Numbered from the stretch's first letter, positions 17,917 through 53,346 are shown. The stretch is 64,000 nucleotides of DNA from Patescibacteria group bacterium (GCA_004321885.1 SCQK01000013.1:32001-96000), one strand, 5' to 3'. The notes: generated by a model from the letters alone, not told the origin. Program-made: numbers and translations.

Positions 17917-19716
17917 TTATACGACTGCCGGTTTTTTACGGACCGCCCGCACCCTGCCGGTTTCCGTGAGTATTTGTTTTCGCAAACGAATGCTCTTGGG
18001 AGTAACTTCCAAATATTCGTCTTCGGCCATCATCTCCAAGCCGCGCTCCAGATTCAATTCCAGAGGCGGCGTAAGTTGAATAGCAATATCCGCGTTAGAA
18101 GATCGCATGTTGGTCAAATTTTTGCCTTTGATCGGATTTACCACCATATCCAGGCCTTTGGCCGTGGCGCCAATCACTTGCCCCTCGTAAACCTCCACGT
18201 TCGGACCCACGAACAGCGCCCCGCGCTCCTGCAAATTGGAAAGGGAATAGGCCAACGTTTTACCTGTCTCTCCGGAAATCATTGAACCGGTTTCTTTCTT
18301 TTCAATATCGCCGACATACGGCTTGAAGCCGATGACTTCACCGCACAGTATTCCTTCGCCGCGCGTATCCACGATAAATTCGCCGCGGTAGCCGAGCAGG
18401 CCGCGGGTGGGTATTTCGTAAACCATTCTGGTATGATTTTGCTCGGGGCGCATCTCCAGCATCTGTCCTTTTCTTTTGGCCATTTTTTCAATCACTGTTC
18501 CGCAAAATTCCGGCGGCACGTCAATGGTCACTTCTTCAAACGGCTCGCGCTTCACGCCGTCCACTTCTTTGATAATTACTTGCGGCTGGGAAACCTGCAC
18601 TTCAAAACCATCGCGCCGCATATTTTCCAAAAGAATGGCGATATGCAATTCGCCGCGGCCATAGACTTTGCAATAATCAACCGCGGAAAAATCAATCCTA
18701 AGCCCCACGTTTACCTCCAATTCCTTTTGCAAGCGCTCCCTTATCTGCCGGCTGGTCACATACTTGCCCTCGCGTCCGGCAAAAGATGAATTATTCACCA
18801 AAAAATTAAGCGAGATGGTCGGCTCGTCTATCTTTATCGCCGGCAAGGATTGCTGTTCTTTGTTCGCGCAAACCGTATCGCCGATATAAATGTCGGGCAG
18901 ACCGGCGAGCATCACAATATCCCCGGCTGTCGCTTCCGAAACTTCTTTTTTCGTCAGCCCTTCAAAGGTGTAAATTTTGGTAATGGCGCCCGAGACAATT
19001 TCGCCGGCTGGTTTTTTCACGAAAACATTATCGCCCAATTTCAAGGTGCCTTGATATATTCGGCCGATGCCCATGCGGCCCAAGTAATTGTCATAAGCCA
19101 GGTTAAACGGTTGAAAAGCGCAGGGCGCGTCAATGTCGGCCACAACCGGTGGCACATTTTCCAAAATTGCGTCCAAAAGAGGCGTCAGGTCTTTGCTCTC
19201 GTCAGTCAGTTTTATCTTGGCTATCCCCTCTTTGGCAATGGCGTAAATAGTTGTGAACTCCAGTTGCTCGGCGTTCGCGCCCAAATCCATGAATAGTTCC
19301 AGAATTTTTTCCTGCGTCCATTCGGGCCGAGCCGCGGCTTTATCAATTTTATTTATCACCACCATCGGCTTCAAGCCCAGCTCAAGCGATTTTTTCAAAA
19401 CGAACTTTGTCTGTGGCATGGGCCCTTCCTGCGCGTCCACCAGAAGCAAAACCGAATCAATGGAGCGCAAGACCCGCTCCACCTCGGAACCGAAATCAGC
19501 GTGCCCGGGGGTGTCCACGATATTTATTTTTGTGCCTTTATAAAAAACCGAGGTATTTTTTGAATAAATCGTAATGCCGCGCTCTTTTTCCAGCGCGTTG
19601 AAATCCATGGTCACGGAATCGTCGGTTACCATGCCGGTCTGGCGCATCAAAGCGTCGGTCAGCTTGGTCTTGCCGTGGTCCACGTGGGCGATAATGGCGA
19701 TGTTTCTAACTTCCAT
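17917..19716 (-). CDS. typA: Translational GTPase TypA/BipA.
   Basis: AIIAHVDHGKTKL and DTPGHADF motifs; 599 aa. Confidence 0.95.
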   Translation of the reverse strand: MEVRNIAIIAHVDHGKTKLTDALMRQTGMVTDDSVTMDFNALEKERGITIYSKNTSVFYKGTKINIVDTPGHADFGSEVERVLRSIDSVLLLVDAQEGPMPQTKFVLKKSLELGLKPMVVINKIDKAAARPEWTQEKILELFMDLGANAEQLEFTTIYAIAKEGIAKIKLTDESKDLTPLLDAILENVPPVVADIDAPCAFQPFNLAYDNYLGRMGIGRIYQGTLKLGDNVFVKKPAGEIVSGAITKIYTFEGLTKKEVSEATAGDIVMLAGLPDIYIGDTVCANKEQQSLPAIKIDEPTISLNFLVNNSSFAGREGKYVTSRQIRERLQKELEVNVGLRIDFSAVDYCKVYGRGELHIAILLENMRRDGFEVQVSQPQVIIKEVDGVKREPFEEVTIDVPPEFCGTVIEKMAKRKGQMLEMRPEQNHTRMVYEIPTRGLLGYRGEFIVDTRGEGILCGEVIGFKPYVGDIEKKETGSMISGETGKTLAYSLSNLQERGALFVGPNVEVYEGQVIGATAKGLDMVVNPIKGKNLTNMRSSNADIAIQLTPPLELNLERGLEMMAEDEYLEVTPKSIRLRKQILTETGRVRAVRKKPAVV

Positions 19717-19718
19717 GT

Positions 19719-20228
19719 CTACTCCCTCTTCTTCGCCGCCGCCTTTTTGAGAACCGCTTTTGTCTTAGTTAAAACGTTTTTGCTCTTTTTCGTCTCTTTG
19801 ACTTCCTTTTTATCGGATTGTTCCGGAGCCGAAACCTTAAAAGCAGTGGCTGATAACGTGATTAAAATTTTGTCCAGCTTGACGTTTAGCGCTTCAAATT
19901 GCGCCTTAAATTGATTCTGATTCTGGCCGCCCTCCCTGTTACCGCCGCCAAAGGCCTGAAATGACGGCCCGTTGCCGCCAAAAGATTGGCGCTGTGGCCT
20001 GTTACCGCCGGCATTGTCGCCAAAACCTTTCCTGCCAAAACCACCCCTGGGTTTGTCAAAACCCGCGTCTCTTTGGCTTTTGAAACAATTACTGCAAAAA
20101 ACAGGCCGGTCGCCGGTTGGCTTGAAAGGCACTTCGCAATTGTTGCCGCATTTGCTGCAAACCGCCTGAAACATGGCCTGTCTTCCCTGGCCTCGATTAA
20201 ATCTATTGCCTCGGTTAAAATTGCCCAT
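19719..20228 (-). CDS. Low-complexity protein. Order: Arg/Gly/Asn-rich N-terminus, a zinc ribbon (CSKCGNNCEVPFKPTGDRPVFCSNC), a GGN-rich segment, a Lys-rich C-terminal tail.
   Basis: CxxC-x(17)-CxxC with a conserved (V/L)PF(K/Q)PxGDRPV(F/Y)C core, shared with the ORF at 52254..52565. Sits immediately upstream of typA with a 3-bp spacing. Confidence 0.5.
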   Translation of the reverse strand: MGNFNRGNRFNRGQGRQAMFQAVCSKCGNNCEVPFKPTGDRPVFCSNCFKSQRDAGFDKPRGGFGRKGFGDNAGGNRPQRQSFGGNGPSFQAFGGGNREGGQNQNQFKAQFEALNVKLDKILITLSATAFKVSAPEQSDKKEVKETKKSKNVLTKTKAVLKKAAAKKRE

Positions 20229-20325
20229 ACGCGAAATATTAGATTATTTAACTCAACCAAGCCAAGCATACCCCTTTTTCAGACAAATAGCAATACCTGG
20301 CCCTTTGTGGTATGATAAAAGTGGT

Positions 20326-20826
20326 ATGCGCTCCACTAACAGAAAATCAGAAAAAATTAGGCAAAACAAATTCGACCCACTTTTGACCGAAAAGAAGGCT
20401 TTTGAATTAAGCGAAAAATTAAAGCGATTAAAAGAAATCAGCCGGCCGCGGGCGGCGGAGGAGGTAAAACGACTCGCCGAATTGGGCGATTTTTCGGAAA
20501 ACGCGGAGTACCAGCTGGCCAAAGCACGGCTACGGGGCATCAATAACAACATTCTTTTATTGGAAACTCAGCTAAACCAGGCAGTTATCATCAAGCCGCA
20601 AAAAACCAACACCGTGCAAGTCGGCCATCTTGTGACCATAGAAGGTAAAAACGGACAAAAAACATATCAGATCCTCGGCTCGGTTGAAACCGACCCGCAA
20701 AAAAATATTATTTCGCGTAATTCCCCACTCGGCGCCGCGCTTTTAGGACGCAAGGTCAGGGATGTGATAAAAATCAAACTGGCGAACAAAGAGGTGAAAT
20801 ATAAAATACTAAAAATCACCTCATAA
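20326..20826 (+). CDS. Second GreA/GreB-family transcript cleavage factor paralog.
   Basis: GDFSENAEYQLAKARL...SPLGAALLGRKVRD. Start uncertain: the ORF opens at 20173, and M at 20326 is chosen. Confidence 0.65.
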   Translation: MRSTNRKSEKIRQNKFDPLLTEKKAFELSEKLKRLKEISRPRAAEEVKRLAELGDFSENAEYQLAKARLRGINNNILLLETQLNQAVIIKPQKTNTVQVGHLVTIEGKNGQKTYQILGSVETDPQKNIISRNSPLGAALLGRKVRDVIKIKLANKEVKYKILKITS

Positions 20827-46239: not shown

Positions 46240-46869
46240 CTATTTCGGCCATCTTTGCACCCAAATCTCTTTGTCTGCCACGTATTTATAATAATTCGTC
46301 CAATCCTTTTTATTTTGAACTTTTCTGCTGACAACGCCGGTGATGTAATCAGCTACCTGCAGCAAATTATTTGATTTTGAACGCTGTTGTTTTAATTTTT
46401 TTATAACTTTCTTCCCGTTCGTATTTAACCGAACGCGCAAATATTTGGCAAGACGGCTGCGAAAATCCGGCGAACCTGACTTATCAAGTATTACTGTGGC
46501 GTTATTCAAATGCGGAAGCGCGTTGTTAAAAACCATCTGGCAGGCGTATTTGTAAAACGATTCTTTGGTGATAAAACCTGGCCCCCACAATTTATTTGGG
46601 TCTTTGTCTATCACGACTGCGAAGTATATAAAGCGATACGGCTGGATGGCCGATAAAAATCTTTCTTTTATCTTATCCGAATTAAAAGAAAAATGAAATT
46701 CAAAATCGGACGGCAAATCAAGCTCTTTTCGCAATAAATTAATCCGTTGGTCGCAAGATAGGGCGTCTTCATTGTCATCAAAAATAACCAAAGAAATTAT
46801 AAAATATCTGCTGGAACCGGATTCTGTTTTACGGCCGGTATCGCCGGCTTCATCTATAAAGACGAGCAT
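46240..46869 (-). CDS. DUF3800-like protein.
   Basis: N-terminal FIDEAGDTG hallmark (an IDESG-type start); 209 aa. Embedded in the paralog operon. Confidence 0.5.
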   Translation of the reverse strand: MLVFIDEAGDTGRKTESGSSRYFIISLVIFDDNEDALSCDQRINLLRKELDLPSDFEFHFSFNSDKIKERFLSAIQPYRFIYFAVVIDKDPNKLWGPGFITKESFYKYACQMVFNNALPHLNNATVILDKSGSPDFRSRLAKYLRVRLNTNGKKVIKKLKQQRSKSNNLLQVADYITGVVSRKVQNKKDWTNYYKYVADKEIWVQRWPK

Positions 46870-46879
46870 AACTGTTAAT

Positions 46880-48361
46880 TCAAATTTTCTTCACAATCCC
46901 CTTTGTCGCATCCACTTCCACCATGTCGCCGTCTCTGAAAACCTTAGTGGCGATTTTCGTGCCAATCACGCAGGGAATACCGAGTTCGCGCGAGACGATA
47001 GCCGCATGGCAGACAATGCCGCCCATATCAGTAACTATCGCCGACGCCTTTTTCATGGCCGCCACGATTTCCGGTATGGTCATTTCCGAAACCAACACAT
47101 TTCCACTTACCATTTTTTTCATATCCTCTATGGTATTTACAATCGTTACTTTCCCTTTGGCCGCGCCCGGAACCGCGGTTTGCCCCCGCAGTTCTTGAAC
47201 TGATAAATCCACTTCTTCCTCACGAGCCATATTCATTTTTGACATTACGTATCTCGCTTCTTCGCCAACAATAAACTTGGATCCATTGGCGTCCACATAT
47301 AGTAAACTATATTTCCAACGTTCATTTAATTCATCCGCGTCGCACTGCCCGCTTCTAATCGCAGAAGGAACTTCTTGTGGCAAAAAATATCGCGCTTGAC
47401 GAATTGAAATAAGCAATCTTTTTGCTACTTCCCGCAGTATTTTATCAAGCGCATAAAATCCTAAAAATTGGTGCTCTTTGCTCCATGCCTTTTGATAAAC
47501 AAGGTCTTTGGTAACGCGAAATAAATGCTTGTGTTTTTCATCAATTTTTAAATTATCAAACCAGGCGTTTTGTTTTTTTTCAGCTTCAAAAAACTGATTT
47601 TTCTGACGCAAAATTTCTTGCTCAATATCGGTCCCAGCTTCTATAATCTCCTGAATATGCTTTACCACATCCTTCTCTGTCCAAGTCGGCCCTTCACAGG
47701 CAAAGGGCAAAAAACAATACTTCCGCGCATGCGCCGCAATTTTTTCCTCCCCAACGGATAATTGAATTTTGCCTTCCACAACTTCCTTCGCCAGCTCATA
47801 AAGTTCCAAATGTTCCTGTGTACCCAAAGCCGGCTTTGTCAGCGTGAGTAAATCAGCCAAAACAAGAACGGCATCTATATCAGGATTAAACTTTTTTAAA
47901 TAGTTCAATAAATATATTCCTAATTGTTCAAACGGAATTTCCAAAAGCCAACTCGGAACACGATATAAGTGTAATTCCGTCTGTAACGGCAACAGTTGTT
48001 CGTAAATTCGCGCGAGTTCTTCGTTGGATAACTTTGATAAATCACTCTCAATAATTTTCCAGGCATAATTTCTAAGCTGCGGTAAAATTTTATCTGATTT
48101 TACATGCATATCATCAATGAGCCGGGGATTTTCCACAATTGCTTCTAAAGTTTTTTTACCGGCCACTATCCATTCATTGCGAATATAGAATAACTTTGTC
48201 GCGCCGTTTTCATACAAAGGAAGGCTGTGTGCCACATCGGCAAGCCCCAGCTTGCTCAATTCGCTTGTCATGGCGCGAAAAGGCGGCTCCAATGTAATGG
48301 GAGGATACTGATACAACTTCTCAATCATTATCCATTCTTTTCTTAACAATTCTTCATTCAT
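46880..48361 (-). CDS. Unknown N-domain plus C-terminal PEP-utilizers swivel domain (paralog 3).
   Basis: C-terminus: AVPGAAKGKVTIV...DMGGIVCHAAIVSRELGIPCVIG...GDMVEVDATKGIVKKI. Confidence 0.7.
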   Translation of the reverse strand: MNEELLRKEWIMIEKLYQYPPITLEPPFRAMTSELSKLGLADVAHSLPLYENGATKLFYIRNEWIVAGKKTLEAIVENPRLIDDMHVKSDKILPQLRNYAWKIIESDLSKLSNEELARIYEQLLPLQTELHLYRVPSWLLEIPFEQLGIYLLNYLKKFNPDIDAVLVLADLLTLTKPALGTQEHLELYELAKEVVEGKIQLSVGEEKIAAHARKYCFLPFACEGPTWTEKDVVKHIQEIIEAGTDIEQEILRQKNQFFEAEKKQNAWFDNLKIDEKHKHLFRVTKDLVYQKAWSKEHQFLGFYALDKILREVAKRLLISIRQARYFLPQEVPSAIRSGQCDADELNERWKYSLLYVDANGSKFIVGEEARYVMSKMNMAREEEVDLSVQELRGQTAVPGAAKGKVTIVNTIEDMKKMVSGNVLVSEMTIPEIVAAMKKASAIVTDMGGIVCHAAIVSRELGIPCVIGTKIATKVFRDGDMVEVDATKGIVKKI

Positions 48362-49836
48362 ATTTTTCTCACAACCCCACTTGTCGCGTCAACCTTCACC
48401 ATATCGCCGTCTTTGAGTACGGAAGTGATTTTTTTCACGCCCACCACGCAGGGAATTTTAAATTCGCGCGCCACAATGGCCGCATGGCAAGTGATGCCGC
48501 CGTCCTCCGTCACGATAGCCGAGGCGCGTTTCATAGCCGGCAACATCGCCGGATAAGTCGTGAGCGCCAACATAATATCTCCTTTTTCCACCTTATCCGC
48601 GTCTGTTAACGATAGAACAACTTTTACTTTGCCTGAAACAAAACCCGGATACGCGGTGGCGCCCTTAAATCCGTCTTCAACATTTAATTTTATTTCTTCA
48701 ATATCCAAGCCGGCTATAATCGCGTCGGCCTCTTTGCCGTAATAATACTTTGTTCCGCTTTCAGTCGCTTCAATCACGCAATGCTTAATTCTCTCATTTA
48801 TTAAATCAATGTCCAATTTGTCACGCAATAGAGCGTTTTCCATTTCGTCCGTCAAAAAATGATTCGCTTGTTTATGCGATATATTCAATCGCTTGGCAAT
48901 TTCTTTGGTGAGCATGTCCAAAACATAGTGCCCATGCCAAATACAATATTTTCTGAGATCCTTAAGCCAAATAATCTCGCGGGCGATGGCGAACAATCGC
49001 GCGAGCTGCGGGGGCAAGTTGATTTCGGAAATTACTTTATTTTGTTCCGCGATGAGTTTCTCGTAGCGTTCTTTTTCTTCTTTGAGCATTTGGTCCGGGT
49101 CAGTTACGCGAGGCAGGGCTTCCTTAACCTGCTCTTCATAATATTTCAAATCATAAGCCGGCCCGATATAGCCGTATGGCGTCCAGCGCCATTTTTGCCA
49201 ATGCTTTGTTATTAATTCTTTGTACTGGATTCCCGCTTTCGCGGGAATGACAACGGCCTTAAGCAACTCCAAAAAATCCAATTGCTCCAACTGGACAAAA
49301 TTCTGTTTAGCCGGAGTGGTAAGCAGAACAAAATATTCTATTGTTTTTACCGGATCATCTATGCCTAAACTTTTTAAATGTTCTCCTAATTTTTGCTTTA
49401 AATACTCCGAAAAAATCATGCCGTCGCTGTCCACAAACCAAGTGGTGGCGATTGATGGAAGATGACCTTGCTCGGTAAGCCATAAAAGCGTTTTGTAGTA
49501 ATCAAAAAGCTCGGCATTGTTTAGCGCGCCAAAATCTTTTCCCACCAAACTTTGAGCGTAATTAAAATAATCCCAATTTAATTTTTCGGTTCGCGCATGC
49601 AATTCCTCTGCCCACTGCGGCTCGGTAATAATTTTTTCCGCAATCCATTTCACCGTCGTTTCTATTACTTCAACCGGCACATACGCCGTATCCCTGTCGT
49701 TTCTATAATCTTGATACCAAACAGTAAATAATTGTTTGCCATTCTTTTTTGGAATATGCGCAAAAATCCCTTGGGGGTAATAGCCCAGCATGTTAAAATT
49801 CACGTCGCGGATATCAAAATTTATTCGCCATTTCAT
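48358..49836 (-). CDS. Unknown N-domain plus C-terminal PEP-utilizers swivel domain (paralog 4).
   Basis: C-terminus: AYPGFVSGKVKVV...EDGGITCHAAIVAREFKIPCVVG...GDMVKVDATSGVVRKI. Confidence 0.7.
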   Translation of the reverse strand: MKWRINFDIRDVNFNMLGYYPQGIFAHIPKKNGKQLFTVWYQDYRNDRDTAYVPVEVIETTVKWIAEKIITEPQWAEELHARTEKLNWDYFNYAQSLVGKDFGALNNAELFDYYKTLLWLTEQGHLPSIATTWFVDSDGMIFSEYLKQKLGEHLKSLGIDDPVKTIEYFVLLTTPAKQNFVQLEQLDFLELLKAVVIPAKAGIQYKELITKHWQKWRWTPYGYIGPAYDLKYYEEQVKEALPRVTDPDQMLKEEKERYEKLIAEQNKVISEINLPPQLARLFAIAREIIWLKDLRKYCIWHGHYVLDMLTKEIAKRLNISHKQANHFLTDEMENALLRDKLDIDLINERIKHCVIEATESGTKYYYGKEADAIIAGLDIEEIKLNVEDGFKGATAYPGFVSGKVKVVLSLTDADKVEKGDIMLALTTYPAMLPAMKRASAIVTEDGGITCHAAIVAREFKIPCVVGVKKITSVLKDGDMVKVDATSGVVRKI

Positions 49837-49838
49837 AT

Positions 49839-50882
49839 TTATCCGAAGTAGTTTTTCACCGCGAATTCAAATTGCTGGACAAATAATTCCTTAAAGTAGC
49901 GCAAACTATTTTGTTCGTAAAATAAAAGCAACGCCTTCTTGTATTCGGCGCTATCAACGCTTCTAAACGACAAAGGACACCAGTCATGCGCCAAGAGAAT
50001 CGCATTGCCCAAAATTCTGCCTGTTCTTTTATTTCCATCCACGAACGGCTGAATATATGAAATCATCGCCGCCGCGATTATGGCCTTGATTATCGGTTGC
50101 TCCTCTGTATTTACCGCGGAAATCATTTTTTCCATCGCTTCTTTTATTTGGAATTGGTTGTCTATCGGCTTATAATTTGTGCCGACAATACCCACTACAA
50201 TCTTCCTGTAATCATCCGTCACGCCCAAATCTTTTATCAACAAAGAATGCAGGGCGCGTATCAGCGCGGCGGTCGGTTTCTTGAATTTATTTTTATTTTT
50301 CAAAACAAAATCAAGCGCGTATTTATGATTCAATATCATCGTCGCCTCCGCTTTAGTGTGCCCTTTCGCCTCTTTCATTTCCTTTAACAATACTTCCGTA
50401 TCCAATAACGAATAAGTATTACCTTCAAGTTCAGATGATTTCCAGCTCAATTCAATCAAAAGTCGCTCTAATTCTTTTTGAGCGACATCGACCGCCATTT
50501 TGTCTGTTTTTTGTTGATACGCCTTGTTGCGCTTTTCTAAATCTTTTAATTCTTCCTTGTTAAACAAGCCGGATAAATGGTCAAAAATTTCCCAGTCAAA
50601 TCTGTATTTTATTTTTCTTTCATCCACCGGAACCGCAAAATAATCCGCGGCATTAACATAACGCAGAAGCGGAGTTTTAATTTTTGACGAATATGTGACA
50701 CTGCGAGCCTTGCCTCTCTTTTCTATCTGTCCGATCGAGAGTAAAATTTCCAATTCACGCAGGATTGTCGGTTTTGACAATCTGTCAAATTTACCCGCTA
50801 ATCCTTTAATAAGTTCGGCCGCTGTTACCTGTTCATTAGCCTGTACAAATTCCAAAATCGCTTTTTGACGTTTTGTAAGCAT
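49839..50882 (-). CDS. Fic/Doc-family protein with an N-terminal wHTH. The Fic motif has Gln in place of the catalytic His.
   Basis: IQPFVDGNKRTGRILGN matches HPFx(D/E)GN(G/K)R except for H to Q. First gene of the paralog operon. Confidence 0.7.
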   Translation of the reverse strand: MLTKRQKAILEFVQANEQVTAAELIKGLAGKFDRLSKPTILRELEILLSIGQIEKRGKARSVTYSSKIKTPLLRYVNAADYFAVPVDERKIKYRFDWEIFDHLSGLFNKEELKDLEKRNKAYQQKTDKMAVDVAQKELERLLIELSWKSSELEGNTYSLLDTEVLLKEMKEAKGHTKAEATMILNHKYALDFVLKNKNKFKKPTAALIRALHSLLIKDLGVTDDYRKIVVGIVGTNYKPIDNQFQIKEAMEKMISAVNTEEQPIIKAIIAAAMISYIQPFVDGNKRTGRILGNAILLAHDWCPLSFRSVDSAEYKKALLLFYEQNSLRYFKELFVQQFEFAVKNYFG

Positions 50883-51004: not shown

Positions 51005-52186
51005 TCAAGCAATCACTCCCCCGCCCAAACATTCACCTTTAAGATAAAATACCGCGAACTGACCCGGGGTGACGGCGCGTTGGGGGTGAGTGAAAGTAAC
51101 TAAAGGGAGGGAAACAGTGCATCTCTGCAAAGGTTGACGGTGACGCAGGCGCACCTGGCATTTTAGCGGGAAATTGGGTGTGTTTCCACTTATCCAATTT
51201 ACGTCTTTGACCCTTGCTTCCATACTGTACAGCATATCGCTTTTCTCGTCGCCGACAATCAGTTCGTTCTTTTTTATATTCTTACCGACAACAAAGAGAG
51301 GCAACGCGCTGGATTCCCCCGTACTTAGTCGGGGGAATGACAAACTGATACGTTGGCCGATGGTGTAAAACGCCAGGCCATCGTGCTGGCCCACGACTTT
51401 ACCCCTCTCTCGCCACCGCCGCGAGGCGGGGCCCCGCCGTGGCGGTGGCTCTCCCCTTGTAAAGGGGAGAGAGAGCACTATGTTCCCGGGTTTGAATTTT
51501 ATCTTTTTCATCAAAAATTCTTTCATCGGCACTTCGCCGATGAAACAAATGCCCATGCTTTCTTCTTTTTCCGCCGTGGGCAAGCCGAATTTTTTTGCCA
51601 GGGCGCGCACCTGTGGTTTGGCATACTCACCGATGGGAAACAAAACGTGGCGCAGTTGTGCTTGAGATAATTGATTCAAAAAATATGTTTGGTCTTTATT
51701 GAGATCTTTTGACTGCAAGAGGTGCAGAACCCCACCCCCCTTTCGTTCCCCCTTTATTAAGGGAGGAAGAAACGCGTAGTGTCCAGTCGCTAATTTATCA
51801 AACCCTAACGCACGGGCTTTATCCAGCCAGGCGCCAAACTTGATGAATTTATTGCACAAAACATCCGGATTGGGCGTGCGGCCGGCCTTGTACTCGCTAT
51901 ACATGTAATCCAAAACATCGCGCTTGTATTTGCGCGTAAAATCCAGCTTCAAAAGTTTAATGCCCAGTTTGGCGGCCACGCGCAAGGCGTCGCGATAATC
52001 GCCGGTCCAACAGCGCGATCCCACCCCCCCTTCGCCCCCCCCTCTGGCATGAGGGGATATTTTCTCATCATAGTTCACCATGAACGCGCCGCTTACGTTA
52101 TATCCTTGCTTAACCAAAAGAGCGGCGGCAACGGACGAATCCACGCCGCCGGACATGGCGACTAAAATTTTTTGCTTTTTTTTCAT
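51005..52186 (-). CDS. mnmA: tRNA-specific 2-thiouridylase MnmA with several in-frame palindromic insertions.
   Basis: ILVAMSGGVDSSVAA PP-loop. Gly/Pro/Arg-rich insertions at 51310-51345 (family 1), about 51410-51478, about 51740-51770 and about 52020-52060. Confidence 0.85.
   Translation of the reverse strand: MKKKQKILVAMSGGVDSSVAAALLVKQGYNVSGAFMVNYDEKISPHARGGGEGGVGSRCWTGDYRDALRVAAKLGIKLLKLDFTRKYKRDVLDYMYSEYKAGRTPNPDVLCNKFIKFGAWLDKARALGFDKLATGHYAFLPPLIKGERKGGGVLHLLQSKDLNKDQTYFLNQLSQAQLRHVLFPIGEYAKPQVRALAKKFGLPTAEKEESMGICFIGEVPMKEFLMKKIKFKPGNIVLSLPFTRGEPPPRRGPASRRWRERGKVVGQHDGLAFYTIGQRISLSFPRLSTGESSALPLFVVGKNIKKNELIVGDEKSDMLYSMEARVKDVNWISGNTPNFPLKCQVRLRHRQPLQRCTVSLPLVTFTHPQRAVTPGQFAVFYLKGECLGGGVIA
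51310..51345. repeat. Family-1 palindromic repeat, copy D, in-frame inside mnmA (encodes LSFPRLSTGESS).
   Basis: The reverse complement equals copy C. Confidence 0.85.
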
Positions 52187-52253
52187 AACAATATAATACC
52201 ACACAAAACAAAAACTGCCAGCCTTGCGGCCGGCAGTTTCTTGTTTGCAGTAA

Positions 52254-52565
52254 TTACCTATCGCGCCTGGCCCGCAGACATTCTCTGCAGTAAACCGGCT
52301 TGTCGCCGGTGGGCTGGAAGGGCAACTCGGTGATCTTGCCTCCGCACTGGGCGCAGGTCAAGTCCACCTGGTACATCTGGCGCGGAGCGCCAAACGAGCG
52401 TCCGCCGCCGCTCGGGCGGGTCTGGCGGTACGCGCGATTGCATTCATTGCAATACACGGGTCTGTCGCCGGACGGCTGGAAGGGCAGCTGTGAAATATGG
52501 GTCCCGCATTTGCCGCAGGAAAGGTCCACATCGTACATCTGCCTAGTGCTGTTGTCAAAAGCCAT
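52254..52565 (-). CDS. Small protein with two tandem zinc-ribbon repeats (CGKCGTHISQLPFQPSGDRPVYCNEC and CAQCGGKITELPFQPTGDKPVYCREC).
   Basis: Internal duplication read directly; paralogous to the motif in 19719..20228. Confidence 0.5.
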   Translation of the reverse strand: MAFDNSTRQMYDVDLSCGKCGTHISQLPFQPSGDRPVYCNECNRAYRQTRPSGGGRSFGAPRQMYQVDLTCAQCGGKITELPFQPTGDKPVYCRECLRARRDR

Positions 52566-52674
52566 AACTTTGCTGTTTTTGTTCCCAAAATGTGTTTTGA
52601 GATTGTTTTAGTCGACCTATTTTGGGAACTTTGGCCGAAAACCGGCCTTTTTTAACGTTTCCAAAATTTGTTAA

Positions 52675-52703
52675 ATTATATCACAAAAGCCTGATTTTGT
52701 CAA
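52675..52703 (-). promoter_or_regulatory. Strong sigma70-like promoter on the minus strand (TTGACA-17-TATAAT) driving the zinc-ribbon gene.
   Basis: Reverse complement reads TTGACAaaatcaggcttttgtgaTATAAT. Confidence 0.5.
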
Positions 52704-52881
52704 TATCCCCCTAATTTTATCCACAACTATTCCACCAGGCGGCTATTGACAAAAAAACTTATTTGTGATACATATCTGGTATCTTACAATCAAGCCCGGA
52801 GAATGTTTGGCATAAGGAGAAGCGTCCCCTCCTTCGCTTCTTTCCTTTTGTCAAACATCTTCCGGGTTTTTTGTTTGCAGA

Positions 52882-52984: not shown

Positions 52985-53245
52985 ATGGAGGTAATTTTAT
53001 ATTATATTTACAGTAAAAAACTGAATAAATACTACTTAGGAAAAACCAATGATTTGGAGCGACGTTTTATAGAGCATAATAACGGTGAAGAAATTTTTAC
53101 CAGAACTGGTATTCCATGGAAATTAGTTGGATTTATTAAAGCCAGCGCGAAGATAATTAGTAAATTAGAGTATAAACTAAAAAAAGCAAAAAATCCAAAA
53201 TACGTTTATTGGTATTTCAATCAACACGGAACTGTATTGGAATAA
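52985..53245 (+). CDS. Small GIY-YIG nuclease-domain protein (YhbQ/UPF0213-like).
   Basis: ILYYIYSKK...YYLGKTNDLERRFIEHNNG covers the GIY, YIG, Arg, Glu and Asn positions; 86 aa. Confidence 0.6.
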   Translation: MEVILYYIYSKKLNKYYLGKTNDLERRFIEHNNGEEIFTRTGIPWKLVGFIKASAKIISKLEYKLKKAKNPKYVYWYFNQHGTVLE

Positions 53246-53250
53246 TGAGC

Positions 53251-53324
53251 GGGTCGGTAGTTCAACTGGTTAGAGCACTGCCCTGTCACGGCAGAAGTTG
53301 CGGGTTCGAGTCCCGTCCGACCCG
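53251..53324 (+). tRNA. tRNA-Asp (anticodon GTC).
   Basis: Hand-folded cloverleaf. Acceptor GGGTCGG/CCGACCC, U8, D-arm, anticodon stem CTGCC/GGCAG with loop CTGTCAC, T-loop TTCGAGT, discriminator G. No encoded CCA. Confidence 0.85.
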
Positions 53325-53346
53325 CTTATTATTCCATCAAAGCAAG

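Follow-up and report, generated by a model that had tools for sequence, protein, structure and literature searches.

What do two small cysteine-rich proteins, both encoded in one 64,000-nt stretch of DNA from a Patescibacteria group bacterium (GCA_004321885.1 SCQK01000013.1:32001-96000; the whole stretch is called the window, and coordinates are counted from its first nucleotide), bind, and in which process do they take part? An earlier interpretation made from the sequence alone (the sequence-only reading) had described the open reading frame (ORF) at 19719..20228 (minus strand; 169 aa) and the ORF at 52254..52565 (minus strand; 103 aa) as paralogous zinc-ribbon proteins of an uncharacterised family associated with nucleic acids or the ribosome. 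We found that both ORFs are real conserved genes for small four-cysteine (Cys4) proteins and that each belongs to an orthologous group of its own, both groups being widespread in Patescibacteria. The proteins of group 1 (the 169-aa type) are mostly disordered; those of group 2 (the 103-aa type) are compact and have two fingers. Judged by its sequence signals, the group 2 gene is its own transcription unit, which is driven by a perfect promoter and begins with a conserved leader of ~90 nt. The explanation that we favour is that the two proteins are RNA binders with a role in translation or close to it. The group 1 protein would serve as a flexible, basic RNA binder or chaperone, possibly oligomeric, tied to ribosome-associated nucleoside triphosphatases (TypA here, ABC-F elsewhere); that of group 2 would be specific for a structured RNA and would repress its own messenger RNA (mRNA) by binding to the leader. 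We give this explanation as a whole, observed and inferred parts together, a probability of about 0.5. The catalogued family, the predicted fold, the two groups, their synteny and the separate transcription unit with its leader are held with high confidence; RNA binding and a translational role for both proteins come close to an even chance without quite reaching it; and autoregulation of group 2 through the leader is a tentative proposal.

The finger belongs to a catalogued domain family. All three modules in the window, one in the 169-aa protein and two in the 103-aa protein, gave full-length matches to the models NCBIfam TIGR04272 (cxxc_cxxc_Mbark, “CxxC-x17-CxxC domain”) and Pfam PF23477 (zf_Tbcl_2, “probable treble clef zinc finger”), at scores 2-3 times the cut-offs (E-values: 1e-17 to 1e-27). 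The 169-aa protein scored 62.3 bits against TIGR04272 (cut-off: 36) and 61.6 bits against PF23477 (cut-off: 27); the 103-aa protein scored 94.0 and 93.0 bits, respectively, over two stretches. Like the rest of the family, the window proteins carry the Cys4 pattern and the PFxP...PV(Y/F)C loop. The spacing from C27 to C45 in the 169-aa protein is exactly 17 residues, and the 103-aa protein differs by its x18 spacing, a one-residue insertion that is tolerated by the hidden Markov model (HMM). Homologues at NCBI and JGI are already named “CxxC-x17-CxxC domain-containing protein”. The family is therefore not an unrecognised one, as had been supposed, and the part of that claim which holds is that its function is uncharacterised. 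This match to a catalogued domain is the outcome that the sequence-only reading had itself named as reducing novelty. Database searches returned 885 homologues of the 169-aa protein and 374 of the 103-aa protein at E ≤ 1e-3, as expected of real genes kept by selection.

With a profile of the finger alone, 7,046 representatives of sequence clusters were retrieved (E ≤ 1e-3). Among the 150 best matches, all of them 100-340 aa long with 2-5 fingers, we saw no domain fusion that could serve as a functional clue. Members of the family are small stand-alone proteins that carry one to five copies of the domain. Separately, a Cys-rich protein of ~500 aa encoded near group 1 genes (at L034:2015-3523, minus strand, and at three other group 1 loci) holds a related C-x2-C-x17-C-x2-C segment (CDLCKKNIIAVFKPGTPFPVYCSDCW), by which the finger may also be embedded in larger proteins.

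AlphaFold 2 (AF2) models predict a treble-clef-like finger, in which the first CxxC forms a knuckle within a beta-hairpin, a loop rich in Pro and Phe follows, and a helix begins at the second CxxC. For the 169-aa protein, the finger was modelled with block-mean predicted local distance difference test (pLDDT) values of 88-93 for residues 21-50, with strands at residues 20-24 and 30-33 and a helix at residues 46-54. The model of the 103-aa protein (mean pLDDT: 77.5) consists of two modules of beta-hairpin and helix; in module 1, C17 and C20 lie between strands 11-16 and 23-27, and C39 and C42 lie at helix 40-49. The same arrangement is seen in the second module and in the 169-aa finger. The label “zinc ribbon” is thus imprecise: a classical zinc ribbon holds both of its ligand pairs in knuckles of beta-hairpins within a three-stranded sheet, whereas in each of the three modules as modelled a helix starts at the second CxxC, and matches to zinc-ribbon Pfam families stayed below their cut-offs.

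Two members of the family from Methanosarcina mazei (A00184 and A01980) have been purified and found to bind zinc by inductively coupled plasma mass spectrometry, and AlphaFold 3 placed their four cysteines around the ion (PMC12704099). They share the domain with the window proteins but are archaeal and have neither RGG (Arg-Gly-Gly) nor Lys-rich extensions (PMC12704099). The window proteins probably bind zinc too, as their invariant cysteines suggest. Our literature search found the domain characterised in that paper only, the other use of the term being for Caenorhabditis GATA factors, and it found no paper that gives the accession numbers; the supplements of the Southlakia Tn-seq paper contained no CxxC annotation. 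A PHROGs search gave no meaningful phage family, and sequence and fold searches of the PDB, ribosome entries included, gave no homologous chain and nothing specific. DksA/TraR-type and other bacterial Cys4 treble-clef or zinc-ribbon fingers (e.g., CsfB/Gin) are among the closest known systems.

The 169-aa protein (pI 10.3; 100% identical to NCBI hypothetical protein EPN28_03155 of Patescibacteria group bacterium) is laid out as an RGG/N-rich N-terminus (MGNFNRGNRFNRGQGRQ), the finger, a Gly/Asn/Gln/Arg-rich stretch, a predicted helix and a Lys-rich tail, which agrees with the single module, RGG-rich N-terminus and Lys-rich tail described for it earlier. Its finger module spans residues 19-53 (20070..20174, minus strand), with the Cys4 core C24-x2-C27-x17-C45-x2-C48 at 20085..20159 (minus strand) and the loop EVPFKPTGDRPVF; C31 is a fifth cysteine within the finger and is invariant across group 1. 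The amphipathic helix at residues 106-131 (19836..19913, minus strand; motif QFExLNxKLDKILxxL) was defined from the AF2 model, in which residues 111-120 have a mean pLDDT of 90, and from 26 homologues, in which N115, K117 and D119 never vary and L118 and L125 hardly do. The 3-4 heptad spacing of its hydrophobic residues suggests a helix for oligomerisation or docking. Outside finger and helix the AF2 model is disordered, including the Gly-rich linker after the finger and the Lys/Ala-rich C-terminal tail at residues 139-169 (19722..19814, minus strand).

The 103-aa protein (pI 8.9; 100% identical to NCBI hypothetical protein EPN28_03340) starts at the ATG at 52565 and carries finger 1 at 52440..52517 and finger 2 at 52278..52355 (both minus strand). 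EPN28_03155 and EPN28_03340 are encoded on a contig of 175,928 bp. Its two modules, each with the x18 spacing, are 64% identical over 42 aa (E-value: 6e-22), and the finger of the 169-aa protein is 44-46% identical to both of them (E-values: 3e-11 and 9e-10). The internal duplication of the one protein and the paralogy of the Cys4 module between the two, both of which had been read from the sequence, are borne out by these comparisons.

For group 1, one genome per species was scanned, which gave at least 591 confirmed loci; neighbourhood counts were taken from 80 loci. The loci are mostly from Patescibacteria, with a few from DPANN archaea and Omnitrophota, and almost all homologues are 130-280 aa long. 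Their architecture is MxNFNR followed by RGG repeats, the finger or fingers, a low-complexity linker, the QFExLNxKLDKILxxL helix and a Lys/Ala tail, with one finger at 54 of the 80 loci and two at 26. Most top homologues carry two fingers, and a second finger hidden by a frameshift in the 169-aa ORF was therefore considered; it was ruled out by the single-finger versions at those 54 loci and by a six-frame scan of the 64-kb window, in which no additional PF-containing module was found. The tail is basic in the bacterial members and strongly acidic in the DPANN members (L065, L079 and L080), which retain the RGG-finger-helix layout. The Omnitrophota relatives (L072:5129-5791 and L078:5818-6321) have the permuted order, with the helix N-terminal to the finger. 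In group 2, the best 120 of the 374 homologues are 93-155 aa long (nearly all ~100-110) and 63-77% identical, and 33 columns are invariant in 35 sequences, so that almost every finger residue is conserved. Because each of the two fingers has its own signature residues, the duplication must be old. That tiny Patescibacteria genomes keep two widespread groups, one of them conserved almost residue for residue, suggests a core function.

The group 2 gene is expressed, by its sequence signals, as a unit of its own. A sigma-70-type promoter (TTGACA-17-TATAAT with a TG extension; 52675..52703, minus strand) matches the consensus at 12/12 positions; the earlier claim of a strong promoter was right, and its description as near-consensus understated a perfect one. 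An intrinsic-terminator-like hairpin (52210..52241, minus strand; 14-bp stem with 7 G-C pairs, followed by a T run) begins 13 nt past the stop codon, and since this terminator directly follows the gene, the gene looks monocistronic. Between promoter and ATG lies the conserved 5' leader (52579..52668, minus strand; covariance model score 59 bits, E-value 5e-8). The covariance model was built from seven short versions of the leader. At 76 of the 80 group 2 loci (L083-L162) it gave exactly one match, which in every case lay immediately before the two-finger gene; no second match was found in the window, and none in 781 kb of group 1 loci, where we found no conserved group 1 leader either. Rfam 15 returned only tRNA-Asp for the whole window at the gathering threshold, and a permissive scan of 52500..52760 had a best hit of E 0.7 and 19 bits, against a gathering score of 60.

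From its 5' end, the window leader contains element A (UUUUGGAAAC, 52666-52657), a variable hairpin (52647-52633), element B (GUUCCCAAAA, 52629-52620), AGGUCGA (52618-52612), element E5' (UCUCAAAA, 52602-52595) and element E3' (UUUUGGGAAC, 52590-52581), all on the minus strand. The RNA consensus runs from A (UUGGGnAAC) through a variable hairpin, B (GUUCCCAA), an optional second variable hairpin and AGGUCGA to an AU-rich spacer, E5' (UCUCAAA), a loop of 3-6 nt, E3' (UUUGGGAAC), 15-20 A-rich nucleotides and the AUG. A pairs with B as helix P1, which encloses the first variable hairpin, and E5' pairs with E3' as helix P3; B can alternatively pair with E3'. The P1 and P3 duplexes have essentially the same sequence, UUGGGAAC over GUUCCCAA. 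At related loci, the distance from the end of the extended -10 box to element A is mostly 9-15 nt, which puts the beginning of the leader motif near the transcript's 5' end. As an observation apart, the plus strand at 52633..52647 reads as a terminator-like hairpin (GGCCGAAAACCGGCC followed by T6), which is the reverse complement of the variable hairpin in P1; it is probably not a terminator, because no plus-strand gene ends there.

P3 was paired in 63 of 63 unique leaders, with substitutions that preserve pairing (U.G to C-G, 11; U.G to U-A, 2; C-G to U-A, 6; A-U to G-C, 1). The minimum free energy (MFE) fold of the window leader (-25.2 kcal/mol; z score: -3.4) has B paired with E3' in place of P1 and P3, and over 51 leaders the MFE folds contained B:E3' in 30 and P3 in 21. 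Since the predicted folds are split in this way, the leader may be bistable. If the 103-aa protein does bind its leader, the nearly identical duplexes P1 and P3 would offer one helix to each of the nearly identical fingers, and the competing B:E3' pairing would act as a switch. That the leader is a new, Patescibacteria-specific cis-regulatory RNA of this design, with the same 8-9-bp duplex used twice and the tandem fingers binding one helix each for self-control, is a speculative proposal, which we hold slightly more loosely than autoregulation itself. Like group 2, autoregulatory mRNA leaders of ribosomal proteins and translation factors (e.g., the S15, L20 and ThrRS operators) place a conserved structured leader before the gene of a small basic protein in a translation neighbourhood; the group 2 leader differs from them in having no Rfam match, and its protein is not a known ribosomal protein.

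The same leader bears on the strongest alternative, which we consider unlikely, that the proteins bind DNA as nucleoid-associated or transcription factors. Here the 169-aa protein would coat or bridge DNA through a histone-H1-like Lys/Ala tail and an oligomerising helix, and the 103-aa protein would be a repressor with the four 8-9-bp elements A, B, E5' and E3' as its operator half-sites (TTGGGAAC). The Lys/Ala-rich tail and the pI of 10.3 would suit such proteins, and leader elements conserved mostly in sequence, with little covariation, would suit an operator. A transcriptional role was also suggested by the M. mazei authors, by analogy with the Cys4 motifs of TFIIB (PMC12704099). In the window, the 169-aa gene is divergent from greA (20326..20826, plus strand; 166 aa, with GreA_GreB_N and GreA_GreB domains) across an intergenic region of 97 nt, and greA is the upstream neighbour at 2 of 67 group 1 loci. 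The variation among leaders, however, speaks rather for an RNA. The spacing of the elements varies like that of loops (4 to ~60 nt between A and B, a few nt to ~50 nt between B and AGGUCGA), which suits RNA and not an operator of fixed geometry, and wherever the optional insert is present ahead of AGGUCGA it forms a stable hairpin, each time of unrelated sequence (22 leaders; median z score: -3.6). Changes co-vary within a hairpin and not over the four elements (L159, the L091 group and L123), and in P3 the U.G wobble alternates with C-G and U-A, an RNA-type variation. The RGG repeats of group 1 also speak against DNA, as such repeats are typical of RNA binders.

Nucleic-acid binding as such is suggested by composition, namely the pI values of 10.3 and 8.9, the RGG repeats and the Lys-rich tail. 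Our preference for RNA comes from the RGG repeats and basic composition together with the translation context and the leader. An analogous arrangement is found in the FET proteins (FUS/EWS/TAF15), where a Cys4 RanBP2-type finger lies amid RGG-rich disorder and the finger and the RGG-rich disordered regions together bind RNA. The FET proteins are eukaryotic, with CxxC-x10-CxxC spacing and no relationship in sequence or fold to the window proteins, which gave no Pfam zf-RanBP match.

Gene neighbourhoods supply the translation context, and the support that they give to an association with nucleic acids or the ribosome is modest. Immediately downstream of the 169-aa gene lies the gene for the translational GTPase TypA/BipA (17917..19716, minus strand; BipA_C and GTP_EFTU matches in related neighbours). 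The TAG stop codon of the 169-aa gene (19719-19721) and the ATG of typA (19716) are separated by 2 nt (AC), and not by the 3 bp given before; the Shine-Dalgarno sequence of typA, AGGGAG, sits inside the last codons of the 169-aa ORF, and a sequence scan found neither a terminator nor a promoter between the genes. Their co-transcription, as proposed by the sequence-only reading, is for these reasons plausible in this genome. Its suggested check, conservation of the linkage, gave typA within 6 kb at only 4 of the 80 group 1 loci and in three different arrangements (downstream with a ~300-nt gap at L043, upstream at L060, convergent at L052, and 5 kb away at L045), and a conserved typA operon was rejected on this count. 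TypA at L043 and L060 is 75-76% identical to that of the window, although the finger proteins are only ~35% identical, and on account of this TypA similarity the link looks local to a lineage.

The commonest neighbour of group 1 is an ABC-F ATPase of ~485 aa, which matched the NCBIfam “ribosomal protection-like ABC-F family” model with E-values of 1e-91 to 1e-118. It was found within 6 kb at 12 of the 80 group 1 loci, as against 0 of the 80 group 2 loci taken as controls, and neither ABC-F nor typA occurred in 550 kb around group 2 genes. The 12 loci span Microgenomates, Parcubacteria and Saccharibacteria, and at four of them the ABC-F gene lies immediately downstream on the same strand. A Pfam census of the neighbours (73 downstream, 67 upstream) found GTP_EFTU at 4 of the 73 downstream positions and MMR_HSR1 three times on each side, with 5 or fewer members for any Pfam family. 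Around group 2 the synteny is tighter: an mnmA-like gene follows downstream on the same strand at 48 of 54 informative loci (those with more than 1.5 kb of downstream sequence), often after an HD-domain gene; alaS, infA, rpsM and rpsK lie farther on, and PPDK-like and VirD4-like genes are found on the upstream side.

A neighbourhood of this kind would also fit proteins that are themselves components of the ribosome (lineage-specific ribosomal proteins, or hibernation or assembly factors) in contact with ribosomal RNA and TypA or ABC-F, and not free chaperones or regulators. The finger surface of the 103-aa protein is conserved to the level of a ribosomal protein, its gene is syntenic with infA, rpsM and rpsK, and genes for ABC-F, TypA and 50S-binding GTPases are enriched near group 1. 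A structured leader before the protein's own gene is the classic layout of ribosomal-protein feedback, and the disordered RGG architecture resembles, by analogy, eukaryotic dormancy factors of the Stm1/SERBP1 type. We nevertheless judge ribosome components to be even less likely than DNA binders: no solved ribosome contains the domain, nothing specific having come from the PDB searches described above, and group 1 diverges fast, as the finger proteins of L043 and L060 do beside their TypA. Nor did any segment of ribosomal RNA come to light that resembles the helices of the leader, although no search aimed at one was made. The weakest alternative, in which the proteins buffer or deliver zinc and the leader is a riboswitch for zinc or another small ligand, could draw on the two Cys4 sites of the 103-aa protein, on zinc binding as the only property demonstrated experimentally for the family and on two alternative leader conformations of similar stability, a trait of riboswitches, but is highly improbable given the near-complete conservation of the non-Cys surface and of the RQM(Y/F)xV motif flanking the linker, which points to a macromolecular partner, the absence of zinc-homeostasis genes (znuABC, zur) among the conserved neighbours of either group, and a leader with no obvious multi-helix ligand pocket, in which the conserved nucleotides lie largely in helices.

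Several results weigh against RNA binding in translation and self-repression through the leader as we propose them. In a clean alignment of 36 leaders, P1 has no compensatory change, and the 3 cells with double changes in that alignment were reached by 2 of 500 shuffles, so that the signal lies little above the shuffled background; the strong covariation in the full leader alignment (A8) was rejected as an artefact, since the model had put P1 on the second hairpin. With covariation this weak, the main support for the leader structure comes from conserved complementarity and from the variable hairpins. The start codon is not obviously hidden in either conformation, a clear Shine-Dalgarno sequence is missing from many leaders, and the tie between protein and leader is one of adjacency alone. 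For group 1, no neighbour is dominant, the links to ABC-F and typA cover ~20% of loci, and these links could in part be inherited synteny. The acidic tails of the DPANN members mean that the tail is not a universal nucleic-acid binder.

The domain and the proteins are already catalogued. The TIGR04272/PF23477 entry defines the domain only, and the RGG-finger-helix-Lys tail and two-finger-with-leader architectures are not separately described in the sources searched. The full architecture of group 1, its enrichment for ABC-F and TypA and, above all, the group 2 leader appear to be undescribed. They offer a defined architecture for each group, a statistical link of group 1 to ABC-F and TypA, and a natural candidate ligand in the leader. 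If the 103-aa protein binds that leader, the pair would show what the finger recognises; the CxxC-x17-CxxC finger would then be a sequence-specific module for double-stranded RNA, and a family that counts thousands of members in the Candidate Phyla Radiation, DPANN and methanogenic archaea would have its first functional lead.

In the window, the gene order around group 2 is a PPDK-like gene, tRNA-Asp, a GIY-YIG gene, the two-finger gene and mnmA; the tRNA-Asp(GUC) and the small GIY-YIG gene lie upstream of the two-finger gene (52985..53325, plus strand). The mnmA gene for the transfer RNA 2-thiouridylase occupies 51005..52186 (minus strand), with a probable start at the ATG at 52186 and a TGnTATTAT box 6 nt upstream of it. 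Its ORF was listed as 51005..52204 (minus strand; 399 aa), orthologues have ~357 aa, and by eye the window MnmA appears to hold Gly/Arg/Pro-rich insertions (e.g., HARGGGEGGVGSRCW and GEPPPRRGPASRRWRERGK). On the 3' side of mnmA (46240..50882, minus strand) are a Fic-domain gene, a DUF3800 gene and two tandem paralogues of ~490 aa, in which nothing is recognisable except a PEP-utilizers mobile domain at the C-terminus.

The 169-aa gene, mnmA and many orthologues in group 1 are preceded by boxes resembling extended -10 elements (TGnTAnnAT, TAATAT or TATTAT), which end just 6-8 nt from the ATG. In the window they lie at 20229..20250 and 52187..52200 (minus strand), and they occur at the group 1 loci L011, L013, L020, L021, L022, L028, L048, L054, L058, L061, L070 and L074. 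Genes with such a box have no Shine-Dalgarno sequence, and these two features suggest that the 169-aa gene, mnmA and many group 1 orthologues are expressed from leaderless mRNAs. The first codons (ATGGGAAATTTTAAT) are conserved at the nucleotide level as well.

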